Assembly: GCA_965237905.1 (NCBI GenBank)
Contig: OZ250172.1
Span: 832,001-896,000, forward strand
DNA from: Nitrospinaceae bacterium
GTDB lineage: Bacteria > Nitrospinota > Nitrospinia > Nitrospinales > Nitrospinaceae
DNA length: 64,000 nucleotides
Direction of reading: 5' to 3'
Part shown: positions 3,248 to 60,976 of the stretch, piece after piece
Layout: the number at the start of each line of letters is the position of its first letter
Position numbering within the stretch: position 1 is the stretch's first letter
Made by a program: the position numbers and the translations under genes
Notes under the pieces: generated by a model
Told to the model about the DNA's origin: nothing
The model's database searches: none
The model's input: only the letters and a program-made list of their open reading frames with translations

Positions 3248-4339
3248 ATGGCGAACTCAGTCGTTATAGCGGGCGGCGGGACCGGAGGACATCTCTATCC
3301 CGGCATTGCCCTGGCGAAAGCGCTTATGAAGCACGATGCAGACATTCAAATCACGTTCATCGGTACCCGGCAGGGAATCGAGTCCCACGTCCTGCCGCGC
3401 GAAGGGCTCCCGTTGAAAACAATATTGTCCGGAGGCCTGCTGGGTAAAAAAGGAATCGGACGGCTGGTCAACTGGCTCAAACTGCCGGTCAGCATTCTGC
3501 AATCGACGGGGTATTTGTTAATGAACCGTCCGCGACTTGTGGTGGGAGTCGGCGGTTATGTCTCCGGTCCTGCGGCGCTATCGGCATGGGTGCTCCGCAT
3601 CCCGGTGTTGATTCACGAACAAAACACAGTGCCCGGCGCAACCAACCGCTGGCTGGGCAAAATCGCCGACAAAGTGGCTATCACCTTTGAGATGTCCAAA
3701 AAATACTTTCCCGCCCACAAGGTGGTGGAAACCGGAAACATGATCCGCGAAGAATTCACCGAAGCGAAAGCGGCCAACATCCCCACCTCCGATCATTTCA
3801 CGGTGCTGGTGCTGGGCGGAAGCCAGGGAGCGCAGTCCATCAATCGCGCTCTGCTGGACGCGCTGGATAGGCTGGCGCCGGTGAAGGATCGTCTACACAT
3901 CATCCACCAGACGGGACAAACCGACGAAGCCGAAGTACGGGCGGGTTACGAACGCAAAGGGTTTTCCGCCGACGCACGGGCATTCATCTACGACATGGCG
4001 GAGCAATACCGCAAGGCATCGCTGATCATCTGCCGGTCCGGCGCGACGACCCTGGCAGAAGTGACGGCATTGGGGATCCCCTCGGTGCTGGTGCCCTACC
4101 CTTTCGCGGCACACAACCATCAGGAACACAACGCGCGCGCTTTGGAATCCAACGGCGCGGCGCGGGTCATTCTCGATAAAGACGTCAACGGCGAACAGTT
4201 GGCAGGAATTATTCTGGACGGCATCGAACATCCCGAAGCATTACGGGAGATAGGGAACAAGAGTTTTCAAATGGGACGGCGCGACGCCACCGAACGTGTC
4301 CGCCAATTGTGCATGGAACTGATGCGCAGTCCCAATTGA
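3248..4339 (+). CDS. murG: Lipid I N-acetylglucosaminyltransferase
   Basis: AGGGTGGHLYP, HEQN and GGSQGA motifs. Confidence 0.97.
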   Translation: MANSVVIAGGGTGGHLYPGIALAKALMKHDADIQITFIGTRQGIESHVLPREGLPLKTILSGGLLGKKGIGRLVNWLKLPVSILQSTGYLLMNRPRLVVGVGGYVSGPAALSAWVLRIPVLIHEQNTVPGATNRWLGKIADKVAITFEMSKKYFPAHKVVETGNMIREEFTEAKAANIPTSDHFTVLVLGGSQGAQSINRALLDALDRLAPVKDRLHIIHQTGQTDEAEVRAGYERKGFSADARAFIYDMAEQYRKASLIICRSGATTLAEVTALGIPSVLVPYPFAAHNHQEHNARALESNGAARVILDKDVNGEQLAGIILDGIEHPEALREIGNKSFQMGRRDATERVRQLCMELMRSPN

Positions 4340-4382
4340 GTCATTGAAGCAACACGCAGGACCCAGGAAATTATGAGGCTAT

Positions 4383-5792
4383 ATGTTTTTAGGCAAAACC
4401 AAACGGATTCACTTTATCGGTATCGGAGGTTCCGGCATGAGCGGCATTGCTGAAGTACTGATCAACGAGGGTTACGAAGTCACCGGGTCGGACAAGTCCC
4501 GGTCGAATGTGACCGAGTACCTGGAAAAAATCGGTGCCCGCATCGCCTACGAGCACCACGCAAAGAACGTGGACGGATGCCAGGTAGTGGTGACCTCCAC
4601 AGCCGTCAAACCGGACAACGTGGAAGTGCAATCGGCCCGCAAGCAGACCATCCCCGTAATCCGGCGCGCCGAGATGCTGGCCGAACTGATGCGGATGAAG
4701 CAGGGCATCGCCATCGCCGGCACCCACGGCAAAACCACGACCACCTCGTTGGTCGCGACCGTTCTGGCGGGTGGCAACCTCGATCCCACCGTCATTATCG
4801 GCGGCAAACTTAAAAGTGCGGGAAGCCACGCCAAAATGGGGCAGAGCGAGTTTCTGGTGGCGGAAGCGGATGAAAGCGACGGTTCCTTTTTGAAACTGAC
4901 GCCGACCTTCGCCGTGGTCACCACACTGGATGAAGAACACATGGACTTTTACAAGACGCTCGACAACATGAAGGAAGCGTTTCTGACGTTCCTCAATAAA
5001 ATACCGTTCTACGGCACATCGGTGCTGTGTCTGGACGAACCCAATATCCAGTCTCTTATTCCCAAACTGGAGAAACGGTTTATCACTTATGGACTGGTGA
5101 GCCAGGGGGATTATACGGCACGAAACATCCGGGTGAAGGGATTGGACGCACAGTTCGACGTGTTTTATCTCGGTGATGAGTTGGGAACGATTCACTCCGT
5201 CGCTCCCGGCAAACATAACGTGCTGAACACGCTGGCGGCGGTCGCAGTGGGCATGGAACTCAACCTGACGTTTGACACCATCGCCCAGTCACTCAAACAA
5301 TTTACGGGTGTTCAACGGCGCTTCGAAGTCCACCACAACACCGATTCTCTGGTGGTGGTCGACGATTACGGTCATCACCCGGTTGAAATCGAAGCCACGT
5401 TGAAAACGGCCAAGGAAGTGTGGCCGGACCGGAGACTGGTGGTGGTGTTTCAACCGCACCGCTATTCCCGAACCCAGACCCAGATGGAACACTTCTGGTC
5501 CGCGTTCAACGATTCAGACCATTTGATCATCAACGACATTTTCCCCGCCGGAGAGGAGCCCATTGAGGGCATTCACTCCAAGGGAATCGTGGACGGCATC
5601 CGGAAATTCGGACACAAAAACGCTGAACATGTTGCAACACCTAAGGAAACTTTGAAACGCTTGTCCCAGATTCTGCAACCCGGCGATGTCTTCATGACAC
5701 TCGGCGCGGGTAATGTGTGGGAACTGGGGCGCGATCTGCTTGCCAACCTTCCCGAGCGGCTCCGCGAGGGAAAACCTGGAAAGGATAGTTAA
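4383..5792 (+). CDS. murC: UDP-N-acetylmuramate--L-alanine ligase
   Basis: IGIGGSGMSGIA, GTHGKTTT, EADESD, DDYGHHP and FQPHRYSR motifs. Confidence 0.97.
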   Translation: MFLGKTKRIHFIGIGGSGMSGIAEVLINEGYEVTGSDKSRSNVTEYLEKIGARIAYEHHAKNVDGCQVVVTSTAVKPDNVEVQSARKQTIPVIRRAEMLAELMRMKQGIAIAGTHGKTTTTSLVATVLAGGNLDPTVIIGGKLKSAGSHAKMGQSEFLVAEADESDGSFLKLTPTFAVVTTLDEEHMDFYKTLDNMKEAFLTFLNKIPFYGTSVLCLDEPNIQSLIPKLEKRFITYGLVSQGDYTARNIRVKGLDAQFDVFYLGDELGTIHSVAPGKHNVLNTLAAVAVGMELNLTFDTIAQSLKQFTGVQRRFEVHHNTDSLVVVDDYGHHPVEIEATLKTAKEVWPDRRLVVVFQPHRYSRTQTQMEHFWSAFNDSDHLIINDIFPAGEEPIEGIHSKGIVDGIRKFGHKNAEHVATPKETLKRLSQILQPGDVFMTLGAGNVWELGRDLLANLPERLREGKPGKDS

Positions 5793-5927
5793 TTCATGCT
5801 GAACAATCCTTGGAAAACCCGACTCATACGCTTTGCTCACCTGCATCAGGGACAAAGCGTACCGATGGCAACTTTGACCGGATCGTCTCGCACGATCATG
5901 GGAAGAACAATTCACAAGAGAACCTTT

Positions 5928-6854
5928 ATGAGCCCTTCCACAAACTGGTTGAACCGAATTAAAGGAGAAATCCGGTACGATGAACCTATCTCCAATCATA
6001 CCTCTCTGCGTGTCGGAGGTCCGGCGGATATCTTCATCATCCCCAAGGACGTGTCGGACCTGCAACTCATTTTCAAAAACCACGGGGACATGCCGTTATT
6101 CATCCTGGGAGAAGGCACGAACCTCATCATGAACGACAAAGGTTTCCGGGGCATCGTCATCTCCACCAAAAACCGCTTCAAGTCGATCGAGCCTCCCTTG
6201 TTTTTCAAAAAAACCACAGGGGAAGAAGGCGCCGTGATCACTGCGGGCGCCGCCGCCAAGATGTCTTATCTGGTCAAGAATCTTGCGAAATACTCCCTGA
6301 CCGGAATGGAAAATCTGGTGGGCATTCCTGGTTCTCTCGGCGGCGCGCTGATCATGAACGCGGGCGCGGACGGCACGGAAATCTGCGATGTGATTCGGAG
6401 CGTCACCCGCGTCAATACGGAAGGCGATCTGGAAACTCTGAAAAAATCGGAACTGCAATTCGAGTACCGCAAGACCACCTTCCCCACGAAAGGCGGCATC
6501 ATCGTATCCGCGGAACTGGAATTGAAAAAAGGCGACCACACGAAAATCCAAAACACCATCGACAGTCATCTGGTCCGCCGCAAAAATAAACAACCGCTGT
6601 CTCTGCCCAACTCGGGCTCGGTATTCAAGAATCCAGAAGGCGACGCAGCGGGACGCCTTATCGAGGAAGCGGGATTGAAAGGATTCAGTATCGGTGACGC
6701 CGGCGTATCGATCAAGCACGCCAACTTCATCGTCAATAAAGGGGACGCCCAGGCTTCGGAGGTGATCGAAATCATCGAACATGTCCGGGCCACGGTTCTG
6801 GAAAAAACCGGTGTGGAACTGGAAACCGAAGTGATTATCGTCGGCGAACGGTAA
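5928..6854 (+). CDS. murB: UDP-N-acetylenolpyruvoylglucosamine reductase
   Basis: HTSLRVGGPAD, GIPGSLGGALIMNAGA, SGSVFKNP and HANFIVN motifs; ATG at 5928 preferred over the ORF-track start 5796. Confidence 0.95.
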   Translation: MSPSTNWLNRIKGEIRYDEPISNHTSLRVGGPADIFIIPKDVSDLQLIFKNHGDMPLFILGEGTNLIMNDKGFRGIVISTKNRFKSIEPPLFFKKTTGEEGAVITAGAAAKMSYLVKNLAKYSLTGMENLVGIPGSLGGALIMNAGADGTEICDVIRSVTRVNTEGDLETLKKSELQFEYRKTTFPTKGGIIVSAELELKKGDHTKIQNTIDSHLVRRKNKQPLSLPNSGSVFKNPEGDAAGRLIEEAGLKGFSIGDAGVSIKHANFIVNKGDAQASEVIEIIEHVRATVLEKTGVELETEVIIVGER

Positions 6855-7919: not shown

Positions 7920-8831
7920 ATGATGAATTATACCTTGAACAAACCCAAAGGATCCCGCCTGAACTGGGGAGAAGTCCATTCGCGCCAGCGGAAAAACCAT
8001 AAACGTCCGAGCAAAGTTCTTAAAGGACGCAAAATCAAAAACCGCCAGACCGGGTTCCGGGATATGGCTAAAACCTGGCTGGATGTGACCGCCAAAGCGG
8101 TCCTGGTCATGATCATGGGTTATGGGGCGTTTCATGGATACCGGTTTGTCACCACCGCACCGCAGTTCGCTGTGGCACAAATCAATTTCTCCGGGAACGA
8201 GAAGGTCAGCCTGTCCACCCTGGAAAACATGGTCCAGCCGCTGATGGGTCAAAACATTTTCCAGCTCAATCTGCAGTCCATCACCGAACGGTTCAAGGCC
8301 AATCCATGGATTGAAAATGTTTCCACAGTTCGGCGATTGCCCAGTGAAATCCGCATTCAGGTTCAGGAACGAACACCGTTCGCACGGATCCAGTTGGATA
8401 AAACTTATTTGATGGATCATTACGGAGTATTGATCGTTCCCGATAATAAAAAATACGATGCCCTGCCCCTGATCACGGGAGTGAAAGTACGCCGGGTAGA
8501 GCTGGGCAACGAAATCCCGGTGGCGGGAATCGTGCCGGGATTACAGGCCATGCATTTCATGAATCAACTGGGCGCGTTCAAGAACGATCCCATACAGAAA
8601 TTTCATATGTCCAGTCCACGCAAGCTGGTATTCACCACCGAGAGCCGGGGAATCGATATCTATCTGGCAGTGGACCGGATTCAGGAAGGTTTTGAAAATT
8701 TGAAAATAATACTCGACGCCATGGATTCCAACCTCTCCGGAATTCATTACATCGACCTGTCCTTCAAGGACAAGGTGGTGGTCAAGCGAAACCGGATGGA
8801 ACCACGGCGCGGGATCGTACACAAGATTTAA
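7920..8831 (+). CDS. ftsQ: Cell division protein FtsQ/DivIB
   Basis: Basic N-terminus, single TM, POTRA-like NPWIENVSTVRRLP, C-terminal YIDLSF; lies between ddl and ftsA. Confidence 0.9.
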   Translation: MMNYTLNKPKGSRLNWGEVHSRQRKNHKRPSKVLKGRKIKNRQTGFRDMAKTWLDVTAKAVLVMIMGYGAFHGYRFVTTAPQFAVAQINFSGNEKVSLSTLENMVQPLMGQNIFQLNLQSITERFKANPWIENVSTVRRLPSEIRIQVQERTPFARIQLDKTYLMDHYGVLIVPDNKKYDALPLITGVKVRRVELGNEIPVAGIVPGLQAMHFMNQLGAFKNDPIQKFHMSSPRKLVFTTESRGIDIYLAVDRIQEGFENLKIILDAMDSNLSGIHYIDLSFKDKVVVKRNRMEPRRGIVHKI

Positions 8832-8855
8832 CCGTTTTTTGAAAAGGGGACACAC

Positions 8856-10088
8856 ATGTCCAAAAAACAAAACTACATTGTCGGCCTGGACATCGGCACA
8901 ACCAAAATCTGTTGCATCATCGCGGAGGTGACGCCTCAGGGCGAGATTGAAATCATCGGTCTCGGCCAGTCGCCCTCCCGCGGCCTGCGCAAGGGAGTCG
9001 TGGTCAATATCGACGGCACGGTCGAATCGATCCGGAGCGCGGTCGAGGAAGCAGAGTTGATGGCGGGAACGGAAATCGATTCCGTCTTCGTGGGCATCGC
9101 CGGCGGCCACATCAAAAGCATGAACAGCCACGGCATCATCGCGGCGAAGCACAAGGAGATCAACCACCACGATGTGGACCGTGTCATCGAAGCGGCCAAG
9201 GCCATCGCCATTCCCCTGGATCGTGAGGTGATCCACGTCCTGCCGCAGGAATATATCGTGGACAACCAGGACGGCATCAAAACGCCTCTCGGCATGGCGG
9301 GGATACGGCTGGAAGCTAAAGTGCACATCGTCACCGCCGCCGTCACCTCGGCGCAGAACATCGTCAAGTGCGTCAACAAGGCGGGGCTGGGCGTGCAGGA
9401 CATCGTACTGGAACAACTCGCTTCCAGTGAAGCGGTGCTCTCCGCCGACGAAAAGGAACTGGGTGTGGCGTTGATCGATATCGGCGGCGGCACTTCCGAC
9501 CTGGCGATCTTCTACCAGGGCGCGATCAAGCACACGTCCGTGCTGGCCATCGCGGGAGCGCAGGTGACCAACGACATTGCCATCGGACTCCGCACTCCCA
9601 ATGCCGAAGCGGAGAAAATCAAACATGCGCACGGATGCGCTTACTCCAACTTGATCAAACACGATGACAACATCGAGGTCTCCACCGTGGGTGGACGGAG
9701 TACGCTCAAGGTGTCCCGGCAAATCCTCAGCGAAATCATCGAAGCGCGCATCCGGGAAATGTTTGAAATGCTCAATCACGAAATTCAGACGTCCGGATTC
9801 CAGGACAGCATTTCCTCCGGCATCGTCATCACCGGAGGATCGGCTTGCGTGGAAGGCATGGCAGATCTGGCAGAGGAAGTCTTCCAGGTGCCCGTCCGCA
9901 TCGGCACGCCCATGGGTCTGGGCGGCCTGGTGGATGTGGTGACCAGCCCGATCTACGCCACCAGCACGGGCCTCATTCATTACGGAGAAAAAAGTTACAA
10001 AGCAGGCCGCAACATGGACCTGCAAGGTAGAAATCTATTTGAAAAAATCTTCAGCCGCATGAAAGGCTGGACGGAAGAATTCTTTTAG
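8856..10088 (+). CDS. ftsA: Cell division protein FtsA
   Basis: [19 protein letters not shown] and C-terminal amphipathic helix ([14 protein letters not shown]). Confidence 0.97.
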
Positions 10089-49852: not shown

Positions 49853-51391
49853 TCAATTTTGCTTTTCGGGTAGCTCTACAATATATAAAGTACCCTTCCC
49901 TAAAGAGCTCTTTACCACAATTTTTCCGTGGTGGCGCGTCACTACTTTCAAACATATCGCCAACCCCATCCCGGTACCGGGGAATTCCGAGGTCCCATGA
50001 AGACGCTCAAAGGGTTTAAAAATGCGTTTAATATGTTCCTCTTTCATTCCAATGCCATTATCACGGATTAAAATCTTCCAATATCCATTATCGTTGTAAA
50101 TGCTATCAATCTCTATCTTAGGCGGTTCAGTTTTGTTGTGAAATTTTAAGGCATTGCTGATTAAATTTTGAAACAACTGCCGCATTTGGGTTTTGTCCGC
50201 TTCAATTTTTGGAAGATGTTTTATTTCAATTACTCCCTTTGATCGTTCAATACTCACTTCGAGATCAAGAAGCACCTCATTGACGACCTCCTTCAAATCA
50301 GCAGGTCCCATTTCCGGAGGTAAAGAAGAGATTCTCGAATATCGAAGGAGATCTTCGATAAGCTTTTGCATTCTAACGGAAGAGTTTTCTAATCGATGAA
50401 AGTATTCTTTTTCTTTACTATCCAACTTATCTCCCATAGAAGTTCGCAATCGATCACTAAATGAAATAATTTTCCGCACAGGCTCTTGCAGATCGTGAGA
50501 TGCTGTGCGGGTAAAATCTTCTAAATTTTGATTGGCCTCAGCCAAATCCTTGACTAGATTTTGAAGCATTTCTTCGATTTCTCTTCTTTTTGTTATGTCC
50601 TCTATGAATAGTATGAAGTACAGGGGCTCACCGGATGGCGAAGAAACTGGTGAAATCGTAACGTTCACCCAAACCGGAAGACCATCTTTTCGCAGGTATT
50701 GAGTTTCCCGGGGAAAATATTGGACATTTGCCGTTAAAAGTTCATCAATCATCTTTCGGGTATTAGGGACTTCATCCGGATGGCTAATATCAAAAACGGA
50801 TATCTTTAGTAATTCCTCTTGCTCATAACCAACGATTTGGCAAAATTTATTATTGCATGTGAGCCACTCTCCCTTTAAAGACAAGTGAGCAATACCTATT
50901 GCCGCTTGATTAAAAGAAGCTTTAATCTGCTGTTCGATTTCACTTAAGGTCCCTTGCATCACCTGCTTTTCTTTAACCAGGCGAATCTGCTCAAAACCTC
51001 TACGCAGCGTCGCCAACAATTCTCCCGGATTGACCGGCTTCCTGAGGTAGTCATAGGCTCCATTATTAAGGGCTTGGACAGCTGTCTCTACAGACCCAAA
51101 CCCCGTGACCATGACACATAGAATATTGGGCTGTATCTTTTTTAACTTGGGAAGCAACTCAATCCCGTTGTCCTGGCCCAAACGGATATCAATCAATGCC
51201 AAATCCACAGCATTCTTTCCAATAGACTCCAGCGCTTCTTCCTCACTATGGGCCAACAACGGCTTGTAATTCTCGTTCTCAAGAATTAGCTTCAAACTGG
51301 TTGCAAAATCCAGATCATCGTCAATGATCAGAATTTGACAGTCCGAATGGTTAGCGTTTGAAATCTTTGTTTCTTCCAGCATGTCACTCAT
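49853..51391 (-). CDS. Hybrid REC-PAS-histidine kinase
   Basis: REC (IIDDD, LIDIRL, LRKP), PAS/PAC, ASHDLQEP, QNLISNALKF and GTGMGLAI. Confidence 0.92.
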   Translation of the reverse strand: MSDMLEETKISNANHSDCQILIIDDDLDFATSLKLILENENYKPLLAHSEEEALESIGKNAVDLALIDIRLGQDNGIELLPKLKKIQPNILCVMVTGFGSVETAVQALNNGAYDYLRKPVNPGELLATLRRGFEQIRLVKEKQVMQGTLSEIEQQIKASFNQAAIGIAHLSLKGEWLTCNNKFCQIVGYEQEELLKISVFDISHPDEVPNTRKMIDELLTANVQYFPRETQYLRKDGLPVWVNVTISPVSSPSGEPLYFILFIEDITKRREIEEMLQNLVKDLAEANQNLEDFTRTASHDLQEPVRKIISFSDRLRTSMGDKLDSKEKEYFHRLENSSVRMQKLIEDLLRYSRISSLPPEMGPADLKEVVNEVLLDLEVSIERSKGVIEIKHLPKIEADKTQMRQLFQNLISNALKFHNKTEPPKIEIDSIYNDNGYWKILIRDNGIGMKEEHIKRIFKPFERLHGTSEFPGTGMGLAICLKVVTRHHGKIVVKSSLGKGTLYIVELPEKQN

Positions 51392-51467
51392 TTCCTTTTT
51401 CGCAGGCCGCCATAAAGCGACCTTTGTTCCTATCTATCTTGATGGAGGCGGCTTTTTACCGTCAGCC

Positions 51468-51920
51468 TCATATCTCTTTGTTCTGGTCTCCAGCCTGCTT
51501 TTCTCTGGCCCGGCGAATTTTTTCACAACCTCTATTTAATGAAACTATCAGTTCTTCAGGGTTGACAGGTTTCCTGAGGTAGTCATAAGCTCCATATTTA
51601 AGAGCTTGGATGGCAGTCTCCATGGACCCAAACCCCGTGACCATGACACACAGAATACCGGGCTGTATCTTTTTTAACTTAAAAAGCAAATCAATCCCAT
51701 TGTCCTTGCCCAACCGGATATCAATTAATGCCAAATCCACAGCATTATTTTCAATAGACTCCAATGCTTCTTCCTCACTGTGGGCCAACAACGGTTGGTA
51801 ATTCGCATTCTCGAGAATTAGCTTCAAGCTGGCCGCAAAATCCAGATCATCGTCAATGATCAGAATTCGATAATCCGACCGGCTGGCATTTGAAATCTTT
51901 TCTTCCGGCATGTCACTCAT
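51468..51920 (-). CDS. Stand-alone receiver-domain protein (repeat copy 2)
   Basis: REC motifs; near-identical to 51998-52441. Confidence 0.9.
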   Translation of the reverse strand: MSDMPEEKISNASRSDYRILIIDDDLDFAASLKLILENANYQPLLAHSEEEALESIENNAVDLALIDIRLGKDNGIDLLFKLKKIQPGILCVMVTGFGSMETAIQALKYGAYDYLRKPVNPEELIVSLNRGCEKIRRAREKQAGDQNKEI

Positions 51921-51997
51921 TTCCTTTTTTAGTAGACCGCTATAAAGTAACTCTCATTCCTATCTATCTTAATGGGAACAACTTTTTACCGTCAGCC

Positions 51998-52441
51998 TCA
52001 TATCTCTTTGCTCTGGTCTCCAGCTTGCCTTTCTTTAACCAGGCGAATCTTTTCAAAACCTCTGCGTAGCGTCGCCAACAATTCTCCCGGATTGAGCGGT
52101 TTCCTGAGGTAATCATAGGCTCCATTTCTAAGGGCTTGGACGGCTGTCTCCATGGACCCGAACCCCGTGACCATGACACATAGAATATTAGGCTGGATCT
52201 CTTTTAACTTAAGAAGCAAATCAACTCCATTATCCTGGCCCAAACGGATATCAATCAATGCCAAATCCACAACATTCCTCTCAATCGACTCCAACGCTTC
52301 TTCCTCGCTATAGGCCAACAACGGCTTGTAATTCTCGTTCTCAAGAATTAGCTTTAAACTGGCTGCAAAATCCAGATCATCGTCGATGATCAGAATTCGA
52401 TAATCCGACCGGCTGGCATTTGAAATCTTTTCTTCCAACAT
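51998..52441 (-). CDS. Stand-alone receiver-domain protein (repeat copy 1)
   Basis: IIDDD, LIDIRL, VTGFG and YLRKP motifs. Confidence 0.9.
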   Translation of the reverse strand: MLEEKISNASRSDYRILIIDDDLDFAASLKLILENENYKPLLAYSEEEALESIERNVVDLALIDIRLGQDNGVDLLLKLKEIQPNILCVMVTGFGSMETAVQALRNGAYDYLRKPLNPGELLATLRRGFEKIRLVKERQAGDQSKEI

Positions 52442-52445
52442 ATCA

Positions 52446-53933
52446 TCAACTCCCTTTTTTCATGGGCAGCCATAAAGTAACTTTTGTCCTTATGCCGACT
52501 TGACTATCGATGTCAATCCCGCCTAAATGTTGTTCCATGATTCCTTTTACAATTGGCAGACCCAGTCCAACCCCAAAACTTTTTGTGCTGTACAACGGTT
52601 CATAAATTTTCTCTAAACTTGCCTGTGGTATTCCTTCACCGCTATCGGTAATGACCACTTCCACTCTATCTTGATCGACGCGACTTTCTATCGTCAGTCT
52701 CATATCTTTTTGCTCTGACTGCTCTGGTTTTTTACCGGGTTTGACTTTAGTCATAGCCTGAATTCCATTTTGGATAACATTGATAACAGCCCGGCGAAAA
52801 CTTTCATTGTCGATATAAACAACGGCCTGTGACTTTAAGTTTGTTGTGACAGTCATTGCTTCAGGTATGGATTGTTCATCAATCAACTCATTTAGCCACG
52901 GGTCCATCTTAACAGGCTCAAGGCTTTTTTCCTGAAGCCGGGTAAAATCCAAAAGCTCCTCAATAATATGGTCACAGCGAACCACGTTTCTTTCAATCCT
53001 GTCTAACTCGGGTTCCAGAGCGTAGTTGTTTTTACTGACCAATTGCTTGATATTAAAAATAGTATTGCGAATTGTTCCCAAAGGGTTCCGAATTTCGTGA
53101 CTTACCATCGCAGACAGGGTGCCCATAACCGCCAGTTTTTCCTTACTCACAAGTTCCTTTTGAGCCGCCTCCAGCTCTCTGGTTCGCTCATTAACTAATT
53201 CTTCAAGGTTAGAACGGTATTGAGCCAATGTTTGATCTCTACTCTGAATTTGCGTCAGCATTTCGTTAAATCCGGTGTATAGAACCCCCAGCTCATCCTT
53301 CCCCTCATAAGTCGCCCTTAACGAATAGTCCGTGAGCTGGGATACTTTTTGAGCCGTTTGAGCTAAAGATAATATAGGCTCCGAGATAAACCTTTGCAAT
53401 AGAACGGAAAGAGGGATAGAAACTAATAAAATGATGGAGAAAATTCCAACCACCAATATCAATTGGTTTTCAATCTTGGCTTCCATTTCATTTAAATTTG
53501 CTTTGATATAAATCTTTCCCAAGACTTCGTCTTCCAAAACAATATTTTTAATAATTTCAATCCCTCGTTTCGTAATCTCTTGTCCTTCATGGTCGAACGG
53601 TGGCGGTCCGAATTGTGCGTTTTTATTCCTGGAATAGGTCGCAAAAATCTGGCCATCTGTTAAATAAATGACGGCAAAGTCAATCTGCTTTTCATCCTCC
53701 AAAGAGGAAAGAATCCTTCTCCCTGTCCTTGCGTCCTCAAAAAGAATGGCCGCTCGACTCATGGATCCAATGGCCGACGCAAGCACTGAGAGACTTTCCA
53801 CTATATTCGTTTTCAGGGTCTTGATATCGTTATAGACTAATATACTCCCTTGCAAAAGCAACGTAAACGTCACCAACGCAACCAGCAACAGGACCAACTT
53901 CCTTTTAATGGAATAGGCGCTAAAAGGTTTCAC
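52446..53933 (-). CDS. Membrane sensor histidine kinase (periplasmic sensor, HAMP)
   Basis: Two TMs, DELGVLYTGFNEML HAMP, VSHEIRNPL and GVGLGL. Confidence 0.92.
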   Translation of the reverse strand: MKPFSAYSIKRKLVLLLVALVTFTLLLQGSILVYNDIKTLKTNIVESLSVLASAIGSMSRAAILFEDARTGRRILSSLEDEKQIDFAVIYLTDGQIFATYSRNKNAQFGPPPFDHEGQEITKRGIEIIKNIVLEDEVLGKIYIKANLNEMEAKIENQLILVVGIFSIILLVSIPLSVLLQRFISEPILSLAQTAQKVSQLTDYSLRATYEGKDELGVLYTGFNEMLTQIQSRDQTLAQYRSNLEELVNERTRELEAAQKELVSKEKLAVMGTLSAMVSHEIRNPLGTIRNTIFNIKQLVSKNNYALEPELDRIERNVVRCDHIIEELLDFTRLQEKSLEPVKMDPWLNELIDEQSIPEAMTVTTNLKSQAVVYIDNESFRRAVINVIQNGIQAMTKVKPGKKPEQSEQKDMRLTIESRVDQDRVEVVITDSGEGIPQASLEKIYEPLYSTKSFGVGLGLPIVKGIMEQHLGGIDIDSQVGIRTKVTLWLPMKKGS

Positions 53934-54592
53934 TGGCAGGCCCCTCCCCGAACAAGGGTTGCCAGGTCCAACAGCTCGGAGCTCGCCTTGAATCTCTTAG
54001 CATCCAAACATTGCTTGTTGATCTCAAGTTTGACCCTGTTTTCAACCACCAGGAGATTAATGTCTATTCCCCGCTCGGCAAAACCTTCCGTATCCCCAAC
54101 GGTTAGAATTGGAAGAGCTTTTGTTTGCCTGACAATTCGCTCAACATCGAATCTTTCAGAAAAACTGACAAAAAGAATATCGCATCCCTGAAAATCACTT
54201 CGGGATACATCGAGTTCGATTTCCAGAGGATGTTCTTTAGAGCGGTGCTTTTTCTCAAGACGGTGCAGAATAGAGCCAAAGGGGTTGTCTCCTACAACGC
54301 AAATTTTATATTCATTGTTATTTTTGTAAACATCTGATTGGGGCGGCCATTTGACAAACCGGGTGAATTGGTAAATAAAACCCGCCTTGATCGCATAGGC
54401 CCGCGAGCTCGTTTCCTGGGCAATGGCTTGTGAAGAGAGAAGATGGCTTGATATGACAAAGGACAGCGCTAATACAAGAAAATAACCAGGGAGGGATTTG
54501 AATAATTTACGGGGAAGGGGTTTTGACATGAGATTACCATCAATTTCAGTAGACCGGTCCAATAGGTTTGTTCCTGGGTAATTTTCTGTCAA
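53930..54592 (-). CDS. YfiR/DUF4154-family periplasmic protein
   Basis: IKAGFIYQFTRFVKWP, ICVVGDNPF, CDILFVS, ILTVGD and SSELLDLA; start may be 54529. Confidence 0.88.
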   Translation of the reverse strand: MTENYPGTNLLDRSTEIDGNLMSKPLPRKLFKSLPGYFLVLALSFVISSHLLSSQAIAQETSSRAYAIKAGFIYQFTRFVKWPPQSDVYKNNNEYKICVVGDNPFGSILHRLEKKHRSKEHPLEIELDVSRSDFQGCDILFVSFSERFDVERIVRQTKALPILTVGDTEGFAERGIDINLLVVENRVKLEINKQCLDAKRFKASSELLDLATLVRGGACQ

Positions 54593-54672: not shown

Positions 54673-57003
54673 CTAAAACTTAAGGGTGGCCTTCAGGTAA
54701 TAACTGCGCTGGGTTTCCGATTCCACTTCAAGCAACTCATTGAGTTCCGGATGAGACGGATCCAGTAAATTCTGGGCGACAAAAGACAGGTCGACATCTT
54801 TCATGGGCTGCCAGCCCAAACGCACATCCAACCGGCCGTATTCTGGAATGGACCGAGACTTGTTTTTACTCACATAATAATAAAAAGTATCCAGCTCTAA
54901 ATTGTAGGGCAGGTTAAGGTAAGAACGGATATTAAAAATATGGCTCGGCTCCCCTTCGGCCTCCAGATCCCCTTCGGTGTTGAAAGCATTCGGATCAATG
55001 ACAGCATTGGGTAAGGTATGAAGTTGAATCTCAGCGAATGTATAACTCCCGGAAAGCCGCCAGTTCGGAAGAATCTCCCATTGTCCGCTCAATTCCACAC
55101 CGTAAACTTCACCCTCCAAAGAATTATCATTAAGAATGGGGATAATGTCGTGAAAGCCTGTTGGAACCGGTGGGCCGGGTTGGAAAAACAAGGGCGTCCC
55201 GTTGTTAAGCTCAATGAGGTTGTCGTAATCGAAATAATAGGCGGTGATATCAAAATTCAATTTTTTACTGGCTTTCAACCGGTAACCCAACTCGTAAGCC
55301 AGCAACACTTCCGCATCCGTCCGGCCATCATTGTTTTCTTGAATTAGTGTTGGATTTCCGGTACCAAAGACACCCGGTGCAGGAATGAGGATTCGATTAA
55401 CCCTGAAATCCTCTTCCGAGAGATTCGGTAATCGAACCGCCCGGGAGAAGGCCGCCCATACCGTGTGATCCGGATGCGGGTTCCAGGCCGTGCGGACACT
55501 GGGTTGGAATTCAAATCCGGTAAAAACATTATACTCAACCTTGGTTCCTAAAATCAGGCTTAATTCATCGGGAATCAATTGAATTTCATCATGCAAAAAC
55601 AGGCTCGCCAGATGACTCTCCTGCCTCGAAATTTGAACAATATTTGATGGCTCCCGGTCGAAGTGTACATACCGGTAATTCAAACCCCAGGAGAAATTAT
55701 GACTCTTTTGAAATGTTTGAAATGCAAGATTGTGCTGAAATTCGATGTCGTACTGGTCAACAACCGTGTCAGTAGGAATTCCTGATTTCCGTTTTAAGCG
55801 ATCGTAATAAAGCTGTAGTTGATAAGAAGAGGAATCATCCAGGGTGCGATTCCACCGAGTCAGGAAATTGGCGCCTTCCTGAATCTGGGTACCTTGGAAT
55901 GGAGTCGACCCGGCCGATAAAGAAACAAACCGGCTGGTGAAGTCCAGATCGGCATTCAACCGGTAATAATCGCCCTGCAGGGTGAGAAGGTCCTGCTTGT
56001 TGATCTGCCAATCGGATCTAAACCCTCCCTGGCCTATTTGCTTGTCATCAAAAGAGTCACTTCCATCAGGGTTTTTACCGTCATCCCGGTTTCTGTATTT
56101 GCCATACACCCGGTAATTGAGTTCATTTTTCAGTTTTCCATCCACCATTTTTCCACCCAGTTTTCCACCATAGCGTAGCGTGCCAAATCCTTCTTCTTCG
56201 GTACCCACTCCTCCCGCAACCAATCCGCCCTGGGTTTCCCCGGCGCTTTTGGTGATAATATTGATCACCCCGGCTACCGCGTTAGAACCCCAGAGCGCCG
56301 CTCCCGGACCGCGGATCACTTCAATCCGATCGATATCTTCCAAAACCGTGTCCTGGCCAATCCAAAAAACACCCGAACTTACCGGGCTGTAAATGGATCG
56401 TCCATCCATCAGAACGAGCAGTTTATCCGAACCCAGCCGCCGGTTGAATCCCCGGATGGAAATGGCGTATCGGTTTTGATTGATTTTAGAAACCAACACC
56501 CCGGGCACCATGCGCAGGGCTTCCATAATGTTGACGGCGCCCGATCTGCGGATATCCTCACCCGTCACCACATAGATTGCGGAAGCCGCCTTGTGAACCA
56601 GTTCCGGCCTTTTATTGACGATGGTGGTAGTGAGATCCACTTGCATACGCCCCAGTCCTTGAAGACTTATTTCTCCTCCAAGAGCTTTTTCTTCGTCAGG
56701 GGATAATTTCTCTTCATCTGAAAAAACCGGGCTGGGACCAATGAAAGCCAGGAAAATAATAAAACCACTCAAACAAATGATTCGGAAATCGGATGGTTTC
56801 AAATTCCAGAAGCTTGCGGAAATATTCTGTCTGGGATTTTCAGAGGGAGGGGATGTTGGCTTTTGTTTTTTTTGTGAGTGGACCCGACAAGGGCCACCTT
56901 GTAAAGCCAGCCTGCGAGCGCTTTTAAAAATTCTACCCAATTCGAGAAAATCTTTAATTCCAGTCATCCGAGCCTGACCTTTTGAATGATTGATTTTCTC
57001 CAT
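54673..57003 (-). CDS. TonB-dependent receptor
   Basis: Plug motifs EALRMVPGV, LVLMDGR and DIDRIEVIRGPGAALWGSNAVAGVINIITK; C-terminal QNLLD...LKF; start uncertain. Confidence 0.93.
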   Translation of the reverse strand: MEKINHSKGQARMTGIKDFLELGRIFKSARRLALQGGPCRVHSQKKQKPTSPPSENPRQNISASFWNLKPSDFRIICLSGFIIFLAFIGPSPVFSDEEKLSPDEEKALGGEISLQGLGRMQVDLTTTIVNKRPELVHKAASAIYVVTGEDIRRSGAVNIMEALRMVPGVLVSKINQNRYAISIRGFNRRLGSDKLLVLMDGRSIYSPVSSGVFWIGQDTVLEDIDRIEVIRGPGAALWGSNAVAGVINIITKSAGETQGGLVAGGVGTEEEGFGTLRYGGKLGGKMVDGKLKNELNYRVYGKYRNRDDGKNPDGSDSFDDKQIGQGGFRSDWQINKQDLLTLQGDYYRLNADLDFTSRFVSLSAGSTPFQGTQIQEGANFLTRWNRTLDDSSSYQLQLYYDRLKRKSGIPTDTVVDQYDIEFQHNLAFQTFQKSHNFSWGLNYRYVHFDREPSNIVQISRQESHLASLFLHDEIQLIPDELSLILGTKVEYNVFTGFEFQPSVRTAWNPHPDHTVWAAFSRAVRLPNLSEEDFRVNRILIPAPGVFGTGNPTLIQENNDGRTDAEVLLAYELGYRLKASKKLNFDITAYYFDYDNLIELNNGTPLFFQPGPPVPTGFHDIIPILNDNSLEGEVYGVELSGQWEILPNWRLSGSYTFAEIQLHTLPNAVIDPNAFNTEGDLEAEGEPSHIFNIRSYLNLPYNLELDTFYYYVSKNKSRSIPEYGRLDVRLGWQPMKDVDLSFVAQNLLDPSHPELNELLEVESETQRSYYLKATLKF

Positions 57004-57344
57004 TTCCCAAGGTATTGAGGAAATTGGAGTTGGTTTGATTGTTTTACATTATCTTTCTGAATAAATTTATTATAAGGATTGAACCTGCCTTTTAAAAGGA
57101 TAAAAAGGGCTAAATCAACAATTTTTCTCAAAACCGATATTATATTTACACCGATGCCTATATCTTATTATAAATAAAGCCTTTATTGGATATCGGAAAA
57201 ATAGAGTTACAATTACACTTTTTTGTAGACAAAGATTTCTATTTTTGATACAAAGGTGGAAATTCGACTTACCGTAATTGTGGTGCTTTTCCCAGATAGG
57301 CTCTTTTTACCAAGTATTTTAACTTTAAAATAGAGGGGGAAATT

Positions 57345-57530
57345 ATGGTCCATAAAAACTTTCAAGAAGCCATTGAGCAACTTTCTACAAATGAAGATGT
57401 GAATTCCGAAGAAATCAAAAACCAATTCGGTTTGAATGAGGAAGATATGCGGGCCATGAATTCCGATACCCTCATTCAGGGTGCAACTCAACCAGCACCT
57501 GTGTGGTGTTTGTTCCTGTTGTTAAAGTGA
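57345..57530 (+). CDS. RiPP precursor peptide (acidic helical leader); Cys-rich core lies in the +1 frame
   Basis: GAGGGGG RBS; 61-aa ORF directly upstream of the YcaO genes; +1 frame 57502-57525 reads CGVCSCC*. Confidence 0.75.
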   Translation: MVHKNFQEAIEQLSTNEDVNSEEIKNQFGLNEEDMRAMNSDTLIQGATQPAPVWCLFLLLK

Positions 57531-57551
57531 CACTAACGAAAAGTTTTAATG

Positions 57552-57589
57552 AAAAAGGCATTACTCAAATTTGAGTAATGCCTTTTTTT
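57552..57589 (+). terminator. Strong hairpin/terminator between the precursor and the modification genes
   Basis: aaaaaggcattactcaa-at-ttgagtaatgccttttt perfect inverted repeat with T-run. Confidence 0.85.
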
Positions 57590-57668
57590 ATTTCTAAAAA
57601 ATAATCGAAAATCGATGTTTGATATTCGATAATCATTTTCCAAAGGCAATTGGAAGGAATCAGGGATC

Positions 57669-58748
57669 ATGACTAATCCAGGGATCATGGCTGAAGATAC
57701 CTCGGTAACGGTAGATTACGTCACCGTTCCACTACCCAGAAAACCTCGATTGGCTCCCTGGGTTACTTTAGTGGATCTGGGTGACAATCGCATGCAATTG
57801 CGTGGGGCGGAGTTTTCTTTTACCTTACAGCATCCCTTGTTCATTGAAACCTTCCAATCCGTCCACCCCTTGCTGGACGGTCAGCGCACCGTCGAGGAAA
57901 TCGTCGCTTCCCGCGACCCCAAATATCTGCCCACCACGATTACTTTTTTGCTCAAAATGTTGCGCGCCAACGGTGTTTTGCAGGAAGGAGTGGTTTCCCC
58001 TCCGCCGCCACTGGCTCCGGAAAATCTTAAAGAAAATGAAAACATGGTCCAGTTCTTTTCTCATTTTGTGCTGGATCCGGTGGGCACACTGGCTCTTCTG
58101 CATCAAGCGCGGGTGGCCTTGATCGGTTCCGATTCGATAACAAGCCGGGTTCGCAAGGGTCTCCTGAGCATGGGTTTTGGCTCCCTGGTAGCAATTGAGG
58201 GCCTCAGCAAAAAGACTGCGTATGATCCGTCCCAACTGCATAAGGAAGTCACCGGCCAACTGAAAGAAGTGGATTTCCTCATCGCCTGCCAGGATACAGC
58301 GGATTACCGGTTCTTTCAGACCCTGAACACGGTTTGCCTCGAAACCCAAACCCGCTGGATGCATGTCGCTATTTCCGGAACCAAAGGCCTCATGGGACCC
58401 ACGATCGTACCCCATCAGTCGGCCTGTTATGTCTGTTACGACAAACGAATGGCTTCCAATGCATCGGAACTTCAAGGTTATCTGGCCTACCAAAAACAAA
58501 CTGAACCCTCTAAAAGCGAAGGGTTCTTAAGCCCCTTATGGTCGACCCTGGCGGAGCAGGTCACTTTGGAAGTGGCGCGGATTATTTCGGGATTTGCGCC
58601 GCCCAAAACGATCGGGCGGCTCTATGAGTTTGAGGCGACGACTCCTGTGGTAGAAGGACACGATGTCCTGCGACTACCGCGTTGCCCCGCCTGCAATTTA
58701 AAAGAACCGAAGCGCGAGGCGTGGGATCTGCTCTCATTAAACCAATGA
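57669..58748 (+). CDS. TOMM leader-peptide-binding protein (RRE + ThiF/E1-like YcaO partner)
   Basis: LLDGQRTVEEI...LRANGVL RRE-like segment; MGPTIVPHQSACYVC and HDVLRLPRCPAC motifs. Confidence 0.85.
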   Translation: MTNPGIMAEDTSVTVDYVTVPLPRKPRLAPWVTLVDLGDNRMQLRGAEFSFTLQHPLFIETFQSVHPLLDGQRTVEEIVASRDPKYLPTTITFLLKMLRANGVLQEGVVSPPPPLAPENLKENENMVQFFSHFVLDPVGTLALLHQARVALIGSDSITSRVRKGLLSMGFGSLVAIEGLSKKTAYDPSQLHKEVTGQLKEVDFLIACQDTADYRFFQTLNTVCLETQTRWMHVAISGTKGLMGPTIVPHQSACYVCYDKRMASNASELQGYLAYQKQTEPSKSEGFLSPLWSTLAEQVTLEVARIISGFAPPKTIGRLYEFEATTPVVEGHDVLRLPRCPACNLKEPKREAWDLLSLNQ

Positions 58749-60124
58749 TCGCCTTGAACAATGCTCACCTGTCTCTCAACAACCTGCAAAATGGCTCTCC
58801 CCGAACCCTGTCCGATGCTATCCAAGCCTCCAAAAAATTAATCAGCAAGCGCACCGGTATTATTTCAACGGTGGAATTTGAAAATTTGGCATCCGGCGAG
58901 CCGTCGTTCTATTTAGCTCGAAGTACTCCTGCAAGCAATATCGCCTTAAATGGGATGGAAACGATGAATCAAGGAACTGCCGCCTCTATCGATCCCAAAC
59001 GAGCCATTATGAAATCGGTGGGAGAAAGTATCGAACGGTATTGCCCTGCCCATTTCAAATACGAAGATTTTGTTTTAGCTACTTACAGCGATTTAGACTG
59101 CGAAGCCGTTCACCCGGCGGATTTTGCGCTTTTCAGCGAAAAACAGTATGCCGAGCCCGATTTTCCTTACTCCCGGCTGACGGCATCCACACCTTTGCGT
59201 TGGGTTTCAGCTTATTCTTTAAGCCATGATCGGCCTATCCTGGTTCCAGCCTCCTTTGTTTATATTCCCTATCATTTTGATCCGTTGTATGAAACTTCCT
59301 CTCACAACCCCATTTCAACGGGATTGGCCTGCGGCTCCAATCTGGCGCCGGCTATTTACAAGGGGATCCTTGAAGTCATTGAACGGGATGCCTTCATGAT
59401 CATGTGGCAAAATCAATTGCCCTGCTCAAGAATAGACCTCTCCACTGTCAACGACCCTTTTATTCAATCCATGCTAAATGAGTTGGAAGTGCTACCACTT
59501 GAGTGTGAGGCTTTTCTCATCCCGTCGGATATCGAAGTCCCTGTGGTTATGGTGCTACTCAGAGGCATTTCAGGCCATCTCCCTCATACGGTAGTTGGAG
59601 TATCAGCAGACCTGAATCCCAACAAAGCCCTCACATTGGCCCTGGAAGAAGTGAGTCTGGGTTGGGTGGGAATGGGACGGCATGCTTTGTCTCAAAAAGA
59701 TTATCAACCCTCAGAGAATTACCAAAATGTCAATACCGTAATCCTTCATGGAATAGCCCATGCGGTGGACCCGGATCTCGGCAAGTCTTTGGAATTCATC
59801 AATGCCTCTGGCAAGCCGATTGCCATTCAAGACATACAAAACAGATATGATGAAAATATGGTAAATAATGTACGGCACCTGGTAAATAAGCTGGATGAAA
59901 AAAATTTAAATGTGGTCGTTAAAGACCTGACCACAATCGACGTGGATGAAGTGGGATTCAAAGTGGTCCGTGTAGTGGTGCCCGGGATGCAGCCCCTGGA
60001 TGTCAAACATGCGTACAGATATTTGGGAGGAACCCGGCTCTATGAAGTTCCCTGCCAAATGGGACTGAGAAGCCATCCTCTCACTGAAGAAGAGGTCAAC
60101 CCTTATCCACATATATTTCCTTAA
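58745..60124 (+). CDS. YcaO cyclodehydratase (azoline-forming type)
   Basis: KSVGESIERY, STGLACG, LEVIERDA, RVVVPG and C-terminal Pro-rich NPYPHIFP; ATGA overlap with the partner gene. Confidence 0.93.
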   Translation: MIALNNAHLSLNNLQNGSPRTLSDAIQASKKLISKRTGIISTVEFENLASGEPSFYLARSTPASNIALNGMETMNQGTAASIDPKRAIMKSVGESIERYCPAHFKYEDFVLATYSDLDCEAVHPADFALFSEKQYAEPDFPYSRLTASTPLRWVSAYSLSHDRPILVPASFVYIPYHFDPLYETSSHNPISTGLACGSNLAPAIYKGILEVIERDAFMIMWQNQLPCSRIDLSTVNDPFIQSMLNELEVLPLECEAFLIPSDIEVPVVMVLLRGISGHLPHTVVGVSADLNPNKALTLALEEVSLGWVGMGRHALSQKDYQPSENYQNVNTVILHGIAHAVDPDLGKSLEFINASGKPIAIQDIQNRYDENMVNNVRHLVNKLDEKNLNVVVKDLTTIDVDEVGFKVVRVVVPGMQPLDVKHAYRYLGGTRLYEVPCQMGLRSHPLTEEEVNPYPHIFP

Positions 60125-60142: not shown

Positions 60143-60976
60143 ATGTCAAAAATAAGAGCAAATACAGTCCCGGCTTTGGAATCCCAACTGGATCCGCCAC
60201 CTCTTTCCCTGTCCGAGCTTTACCACGAAAACACCAAGTTACATCCCCTGACCGCTCAGGATCTAGGGATAGCACCTTTGAGTGATTTTTCCGCCGCCGA
60301 CCTGCAAGCCATGTCAAGGGCCTACAAACAATATCCCAACGCACCGCGCGTCAAGTTGCCTGCCATTGAAGGCATTCCTCAAAACGGCCGCACGTTTGAT
60401 GAGGTAATTTCATCCCGGAGAAGCTTACGGGATTTTGCCGATCTGGATTTAGACCTGGATGATTTGTCCAAGATCCTGCACCAAAGTTATGGGATCACCG
60501 GAGAAGTTCCAAGCAACAGGGGATTCCGCCAGGATTTGAGATCCGCTCCCTCGGCGGGAGCCCTCTACCCGGCTGAAATCTATATTGCCGTCCGGAAAGT
60601 TGCCGATGTCGAGCCTGGAATCTATCATTACAATGTGCCGAATCATGAACTGGAATTAATGATGCCGGGCGACCCCACCGAAAAAATCCACGAAGTTTGT
60701 GTTGGGCAAGAACATGTTCTTAAGTCCTCTGTCGTGGTTCTGATCTCCGGAGTCCTGGAGCGGATCAAACTCAAGTATGGCGAACGTGGGTACCGCTATG
60801 TCTTACTCGATATTGGACATCTCGGCCAGAATATTTATCTCGCCTGCACCTCTTTGGACCTGGCCGTCATGACCACCTGCGGCTTTTTTGACGACGAAGC
60901 CAATAAACTCCTGCGCATCGATGGAGTGGACGAAACCGCCATGTACGTGGCCTTCATCGGAAAACGGCAAGCCTAG
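60143..60976 (+). CDS. SagB/ThcOx-family FMN-dependent azoline dehydrogenase
   Basis: RRSLRDF, RSAPSAGALYP and KYGERGYRYVLLDIGHLGQN motifs. Confidence 0.92.
   Translation: MSKIRANTVPALESQLDPPPLSLSELYHENTKLHPLTAQDLGIAPLSDFSAADLQAMSRAYKQYPNAPRVKLPAIEGIPQNGRTFDEVISSRRSLRDFADLDLDLDDLSKILHQSYGITGEVPSNRGFRQDLRSAPSAGALYPAEIYIAVRKVADVEPGIYHYNVPNHELELMMPGDPTEKIHEVCVGQEHVLKSSVVVLISGVLERIKLKYGERGYRYVLLDIGHLGQNIYLACTSLDLAVMTTCGFFDDEANKLLRIDGVDETAMYVAFIGKRQA

Follow-up and report, generated by a model that had tools for sequence, protein, structure and literature searches.

The window analyzed here, a 64,000-nucleotide stretch of the forward strand of a Nitrospinaceae genome (G000; contig OZ250172.1, positions 832,001 to 896,000), carries a short open reading frame (57345-57530, forward strand) that lies upstream of genes for an E1/ThiF-like scaffold, a YcaO protein and a SagB-family dehydrogenase, and divergently from genes for a TonB-dependent receptor, a YfiR-like protein and a sensor histidine kinase (Table 1). 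The YcaO and C-protein scaffold of TOMM/LAP systems are both encoded, as is the FMN dehydrogenase for azole formation, with each match over the cut-off of its model (TIGR03604, TIGR03882 and TIGR03605, respectively), and the adjacent Cys/Ser/Thr-rich core is present in 23 of 23 relatives' clusters and out of frame in the window. We class the Nitrospinales cluster as a predicted TOMM/LAP-like linear azole peptide system, with a very short, C-terminal precursor core and with the precursor broken in the window genome. The columns GESxERYC, STGLAC and ExxERD of the YcaO ATP site are invariant, and its Pro-rich C-terminus is like that of its relatives; the nearest solved structures are MusD, LynD and TruD, and the nearest named loci are titled Nitrospinaceae (74-76% identity). 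Among 101 genomes of the order, 22 contain the cluster YcaO (20 of 51 when only high-quality genomes are counted), and all four of the sampled families are represented.

Table 1. Features of the peptide locus and its neighborhood, with positions numbered within the window
Feature	Position	Strand	Basis
Sensor histidine kinase, YfiR-like-associated type	52446..53933	-	NF053592, 187 bits, below cut-off 194
YfiR-like periplasmic protein (TOL_0243-like)	53930..54592	-	NF053591, 105.7 bits, below cut-off 125
TonB-dependent receptor (TOL_0244-like), divergent from peptide operon	54673..57003	-	NF053590, 562.7 bits, below cut-off 645
Predicted sigma-70-type promoter, TAGACA-17-TACAAA, extended TG	57226..57254	+	Largely invariant columns in 11 aligned intergenic regions
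Precursor ribosome-binding site, AGAGGGGG	57332..57339	+	Ends 5 nt before ATG; G-rich in relatives
Precursor, ancestral frame: NHLP-clan-like leader with L-x-E-E-D-M motif, through Pro-Ala-Pro-Val-Trp-Cys	57345..57509	+	
Net +1 frameshift site, TTT within the TGTT-TGTT repeat 57507-57514	57509..57511	+	Gap-placement minimum in 6/6 relatives
Frame-0 tail, LFLLLK-stop	57510..57530	+	Shadow reading of Cys codons; TGA formed from old Ser-Asp codons
Stranded core end, Cys-Ser-Cys-Cys-stop	57511..57525	+	+1 frame; colinear with TGT TGC TGT TGT TAA of L075
Remnant of Q-S-D-N-stop tail, still translated in many relatives	57526..57536	+	
Intrinsic terminator-like hairpin, gap between precursor and enzyme genes	57551..57588	+	17 pairs and T run
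E1/ThiF-like TOMM leader-binding scaffold (C protein)	57669..58748	+	TIGR03882, 55.1 bits, over cut-off 36.9; PF00899
YcaO cyclodehydratase (D protein), intact	58745..60124	+	TIGR03604, 311 bits, over cut-off 219
SagB-family azoline dehydrogenase (B protein), intact	60143..60976	+	TIGR03605, 144.5 bits, over cut-off 78.4

The predicted promoter of the precursor is not listed by the consensus promoter scan, which requires T at position 6. Conserved blocks are present on either side of it, with TTACAATTACA upstream and TTCG-nn-TTACCGTAAT downstream (57205-57279 in the window, and 11 close relatives), and these are possible operator sites. The region of the terminator-like hairpin gave a fold z of -4.67 (57480-57600), with hairpin arms conserved in all five same-genus sequences, and its location after the precursor would favor peptide transcripts over enzyme transcripts. 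On the opposite strand, the true start of the receptor is probably downstream of the first ATG.

The called precursor ends in PAPVWCLFLLLK-stop. Reading one base over, as in the initial annotation, gives tgt ggt gtt tgt tcc tgt tgt taa at 57502-57525, i.e., CGVCSCC-stop, and direct reading of the letters bears this out. This +1 frame is open from about 57460, with a stop just upstream, so that it has no start of its own, and none of the Shine-Dalgarno-like words GGAG, GAGG and AGGA occurs within 57441-57512, in agreement with the annotation's description of a frame with stops upstream and no convincing ribosome-binding site. Endings of this kind are rare: of 205,322 stop codons counted over all six reading frames of the whole genome, only 10 are preceded by at least four Cys within seven codons. 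Because of this rarity genome-wide, and because orthologues read the same run in frame, we consider the Cys-rich +1 frame to be beyond chance.

Comparison with relatives was based on 23 strong-scoring orthologous clusters fetched from 21 relatives, together with 15 protein homologues and 9 metagenome loci, the three sets partly overlapping. An in-frame Cys run was present as a stand-alone precursor in 22 of the 23 clusters (with endings such as RPVAWCCTCY, RPAELCCCCCL and RPTQYCCTCTQADN) and as two fused open reading frames in the remaining one, and it was also in frame in all 15 protein homologues and all 9 metagenome loci, with every intact relative carrying a run of three to six Cys/Ser/Thr. 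The WCLFLLLK ending, whose conservation in orthologues in place of the Cys pattern had been named as the outcome that would speak against a hidden core, occurs in none of these 23 clusters, 15 homologues and 9 loci. When the codons of the Cys run were read in the shifted frame in 10 intact relatives, the result was a Leu-rich string in nine (LLLLSLK and LLLLAK, for example) and LYLHSS in one; the LFLLLK tail of the window is therefore a shadow of the Cys run. On this comparison, the Cys-rich +1 frame is the ancestral frame, and the proposal that it encodes the true core is upheld. In the wider set of 91 profile matches, the Nitrospinales-like P0039 and P0081 have no Cys core and P0082 ends at 32 residues; these were neither counted as recurrent frameshifts nor excluded as such.

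AGT GAC, still present in the window after the stop of the +1 frame, is a leftover of the QSDN tail of the relatives. The Gln codon of this tail has become a stop in L075, L078, L080, L081 and G002 as well as in the window (57523-57536 and the corresponding region of the relatives), and the tail looks dispensable.

We located the break using L075, the closest relative at the DNA level, which is colinear with the window apart from one gap, and five further relatives of the same layout. A single alignment gap was slid along 52 bases, and mismatches were summed over the six relatives. The sum was 119 with the gap at 57509-57511, versus 132 at 57505-57506 and 140-145 at 57501-57503, and this minimum was found in six of six relatives (57512 ties in two), which are not independent of one another, and with L075 alone giving the late gap a margin of one to three mismatches (one over 57505-57506). 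Placing an X at the break in a profile test gave 105.3, 106.4 and 105.9 bits for codons 53, 54 and 55, versus 93.4 bits for frame 0; these scores are too close to separate the three codons, and the late junction therefore rests on the DNA. It is likely that frame 0 is correct through Trp-Cys and that the +1 frame takes over from Cys-Ser-Cys-Cys, i.e., after the Cys encoded in frame 0 at 57507-57509, a residue shared by all 20 aligned rows (P0042, outside this alignment, has Ser there). A 1-base gain, a 4-base TGTT duplication and a 2-base loss at 57509-57511 would all fit equally well.

The initial annotation had placed the junction in the GT-rich tract, likely three codons too early, and had read the peptide as ending PAP-x-GVCSCC. 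Of its CGVCSCC core, the part C-S-C-C-stop (57511-57525) is likely ancestral, and the part C-G-V (57502-57510) likely arises from reading the Val-Trp-Cys codons out of frame. An earlier break, such as one caused by (TG)n losing a single TG, would give an ancestral core with Gly-Val before CSCC, and two points are compatible with it: the X-at-break scores for codons 53 to 55 lie only about 1 bit apart, and in many relatives CSCC follows a pair of hydrophobic residues (ILCSCC). We consider it unlikely, since the DNA gap test prefers the later site in all six relatives, Val would occupy the invariant Cys column, and none of the 36 intact precursors opens its core with C-x-x-C. Trp-Cys-Cys, by comparison, is found naturally, with Trp directly before the Cys run in the homologue P0024 (PAP-G-W) and in L025 and L063.

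Four causes had been put forward for the shift: a sequencing error, an inactivating indel, slipped-strand phase variation, or recoding. Contigs from two runs of one sample (X1 and X2, probably the source of the assembly) show no other letters and no gaps relative to the window over 57000-57581, at depths of 204 and 266, and are unbroken over 5.2 kb and identical to the window, with the only nearby break at the terminator palindrome (57552-57584). These ungapped contigs make an assembly error unlikely, and the TTT at the break is no long homopolymer. Run X3 gave an identical 151-base piece at depth 2 (57366-57516) that extends only 5 bases past the TTT and was not counted as bridging; in run X4, the contig of a relative has 147 letters over 148 positions at depth 3, i.e., one gap somewhere, which fits a missing surplus base. 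A sequencing or consensus error, or a mixed population that holds an intact allele, is in our judgment quite unlikely against two such runs at a depth above 200, although neither X1 nor X2 is independent of the assembly, contigs show majority alleles and drop rare variants, and the platform is not on record. Also in favor of an error, the genome has other single-base lesions known from assembly letters, one of them in a G run, and assemblies of relatives are also broken, in the YcaO of L026 (genome G019; interrupted by a frameshift at about residue 384, 8191-9512, with an intact precursor, and either a lesion or a sequencing error) and in the precursor of L102 (several indels on a chimeric-looking contig, which we treated as assembly noise).

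Phase variation, programmed ribosomal frameshifting or transcriptional slippage would yield two cores on one leader, and the GT-rich tract does contain (TG)3 at 57500-57505, TGTT twice at 57507-57514, and a weak hairpin over 57495-57509, beside intact enzymes. Our scan of this tract for slippery sites and long repeats found (TG)3 to be the longest dinucleotide repeat and a homopolymer of 3 nt to be the longest, with no Shine-Dalgarno-like word upstream, and inspection of the frame-0 codons Pro52 to Phe57 revealed none whose tRNA could re-pair after moving forward by one base. In addition, the same break is absent from the intact-looking relatives (23 clusters, 15 proteins and 9 metagenome loci; P0039, P0081 and the noisy L102 are possible exceptions), although programmed frameshifts are normally conserved, and the X1 and X2 contigs, in which minor alleles are invisible, show no length variant. 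We regard this explanation as extremely unlikely and rejected both slipped-strand phase variation and recoding, for which we found no support.

A further alternative is that the frameshift made a new useful core, with one Cys after Trp and a hydrophobic tail, that is still processed; the leader, promoter, ribosome-binding site and enzymes are intact, and one Cys is left at the conserved first position. This is very unlikely, as the tail is a predictable shadow of the Cys codons, the frame-0 peptide of the window forms a cluster of one member, its tail having been seen once only, and all intact relatives retain their Cys/Ser/Thr run.

The net one-base surplus is likely a real and recent loss-of-function frameshift, which moves the last four core codons out of frame and would deprive an otherwise intact YcaO pathway of its usual substrate. 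From the present allele, ribosomes would produce a peptide of 61 residues that has a single Cys and ends in a Leu-rich tail, and this product is probably useless. Of the causes proposed at the outset, the inactivating indel is the one favored by the conserved in-frame core, the intact enzymes and the ungapped contigs. The frameshift is taken to be recent because the promoter, ribosome-binding site, terminator and the genes encoding E1, YcaO and SagB are all intact. The promoter-like and ribosome-binding sequences of the window match those of its relatives, and the rest of the unit is without decay: pairwise dN/dS for E1, YcaO and SagB is 0.12-0.18 between this genome and four same-genus genomes and 0.08-0.17 among those four, with no excess of private substitutions in the three genes. 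Our search found no second strain of the same species and, in the six frames of the genome, no other profile match to the precursor below E 0.085. The genome does contain a second NHLP-like open reading frame of 108 amino acids (G000:C1:2815727-2816053, reverse strand), which has no Cys run and no YcaO neighbor.

For the background of such lesions, 295 open reading frames were compared with the same-genus genome G008, and 28 were flagged, of which 26 were scanned with Pfam, 14 viewed as protein and 3 as DNA. Two were real, the rest apparently being shadow open reading frames, false N-terminal extensions and tandem paralogues, and 6 of 263 were flagged in the reverse direction. The two real cases are comEC and surE, each broken by a one-base deletion relative to G008 (G000:C1, about 724,826 and 573,196, respectively; from assembly letters only), with that in surE located in a G run. 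One-nucleotide frameshifts of this kind are thus background in this genome.

The closest described system appears to be the srp cluster of marine sponge microbiomes, to which bioRxiv 2022.04.01.486688 points in its available text; the likeness is set by the published description of SrpE and SrpC and not by sequence comparison. In the available part of PMC10858898, SrpE is a proteusin with an LXXXXL motif in its leader and a core, LCCCW, that is cyclized by the YcaO protein SrpC. Both systems have an NHLP-type leader with this motif (NLTEEQL in SrpE versus L-x-E-E-D-M here, with the homologue P0030 carrying NLTEEQL itself) and a short contiguous-Cys core after a hydrophobic residue that is cyclodehydrated by YcaO (predicted here). 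The L-x4-L/M motif occurs in 26 of 37 leaders, alongside contiguous Cys runs, and several relatives end in LCCCCW or LCSCCW followed by QSDN. Three differences stand against these likenesses: the brominase SrpI is clustered there, whereas no halogenase is among the gene families shared here (PF04820 gave only weak unlinked matches, in two of five genomes); the leader here is shorter, about 55 residues, with no Gly-Gly before the core; and a TonB receptor, a YfiR-like protein and a kinase are linked here. We rejected filing the cluster as an srp cluster because there is no clustered brominase.

Likeness to the NHLP/Os1348 clan (TIGR03793, TIGR04509 and NF038399) is suggested by 15 of 21 orthologues that match NF038399 (best E, 3.2e-06) and 12 of 21 that match TIGR04509, all of these matches being sub-threshold; the first member scores 12 bits against NHLP model cut-offs of 34-40, and the window's own precursor matched none of the profile families. 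In the portion of PMC2887384 available, NHLPs are described with a Gly-Gly cleavage motif and an ABC exporter, neither of which is present here, Gly-Gly being found within 8 residues of the core in 0 of 37 distinct precursors. The absence of Gly-Gly led us to reject a classical NHLP precursor. Streptolysin S-type systems share the contiguous Cys run and SagBCD-like enzymes, and differ in having a run of 9-10 or more residues, versus at most 6 Cys/Ser/Thr in the 37 precursors here, a different leader, and a clustered ABC transporter and CaaX protease. The definition in the available text of PMC4603692 is Gly followed by at least 10 contiguous heterocyclizable residues, and a streptolysin S-type cytolysin was rejected since the longest run is 6 and the transporter and protease are absent from the cluster (PMC4513790 and PMC4603692, as far as the available text of each goes). 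Two genes matching PF02517 (CaaX-like) lie elsewhere in the genome, and none is among the shared cluster families.

The combination of leader and poly-Cys core extends to other phyla. Six loci from Nannocystis, Nannocystaceae, Acidobacteriota and Actinomycetota (L103 to L107 and L110) encode precursors ending in VSCCSCCCCCCGE(D)T along with SagB, E1 and YcaO, with, in L105 and L110, a further gene that is radical-SAM-like at its start, and these clusters appear to form a related, unstudied family. Within the order, the second cluster of genome G047 (L060) contains two divergent fused precursors. The first (4241-5119, reverse strand) joins the leader and Cys run to a heme-binding beta-barrel (PF08768 and NF040572), and the second (5702-6265, forward strand) has a Lys-rich N-terminal stretch, the leader and CCCTCS. 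These fusions suggest that azoles may be installed inside larger proteins.

In intact relatives, based on established TOMM chemistry (as covered in the available text of PMC4603692), the E1 scaffold would bind the leader, YcaO would cyclize four to five adjacent Cys/Ser/Thr residues to azolines, and SagB would oxidize these to give four to five linked azoles. The genes around the enzymes point to a possible use for such a product. A TonB receptor adjoins the cluster in 24 of 24 loci (in L060 it lies downstream on the same strand), the YfiR-like gene was found by tblastn in 21 of 23 relatives' clusters, and the kinase family, which also includes other kinase domains, is present in 22 of 24; no other flanking family is common to more than 6 of the 24 loci. 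Directly downstream of the YfiR-associated kinase, the window carries three tandem, closely similar response-regulator receiver domains (49853-52441, reverse strand), two of them stand-alone open reading frames and the third forming the N-terminus of a kinase, and G008 also has two such open reading frames.

From the constant presence of the receptor and the scarcity of other shared flanking families, we infer that the product may be its ligand: the mature poly-thiazole, probably complexed with a metal, would bind the divergently encoded TonB receptor and signal through the YfiR-like protein and the kinase. We put this forward as a possibility that falls somewhat short of probable, as several observations run against it. 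No exporter, transporter or peptidase is common to the clusters of the 24 loci, and viewing the intergenic alignments by eye revealed no evident Fur box. Elsewhere in the genome, another pair of TonB receptor and YfiR-like genes (G000:C1:1802775-1805571, forward strand) has no kinase or peptide genes alongside; a receptor match was found in 0 of 36 further clusters beyond the 23, each covering at most 6 kb; and the related poly-Cys clusters outside the order have no receptor. An antimicrobial role, with the synteny being inherited, is about as likely as the ligand role. As to leader removal, the genome (96% complete) has no TldD by PF01523 and a single, unlinked C39 peptidase match. A search of the ESM Atlas returned only matches under 0.9.

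As it stands, the frameshift is an ordinary broken gene, and its recognition removes a false lead on recoding and serves as a warning that gene calls can conceal a RiPP core. The cluster carries more weight than the lesion, being an order-wide linear azole peptide system always beside a TonB receptor, and in the openly accessible articles searched, we found no published description of it. Members of the Nitrospinaceae are major marine nitrite oxidizers, and to our knowledge their metal uptake and cell-to-cell signaling have been little studied. Our broadest interpretation, which is tentative and on balance doubtful, is that of an undescribed system across the Nitrospinales in which a short ribosomal poly-thiazole would be the ligand, as metal carrier or signal, of a dedicated relay of TonB receptor, YfiR-like protein and kinase, with the present genome as a natural non-producer; if this is true, the strain would be a candidate cheater whose loss is confined to the peptide core, with the receptor retained. 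The pathway of four genes with its fixed receptor neighbor could easily be reconstituted from an intact relative, and this would show directly whether a poly-thiazole of ribosomal origin can serve as a metallophore or a signal.
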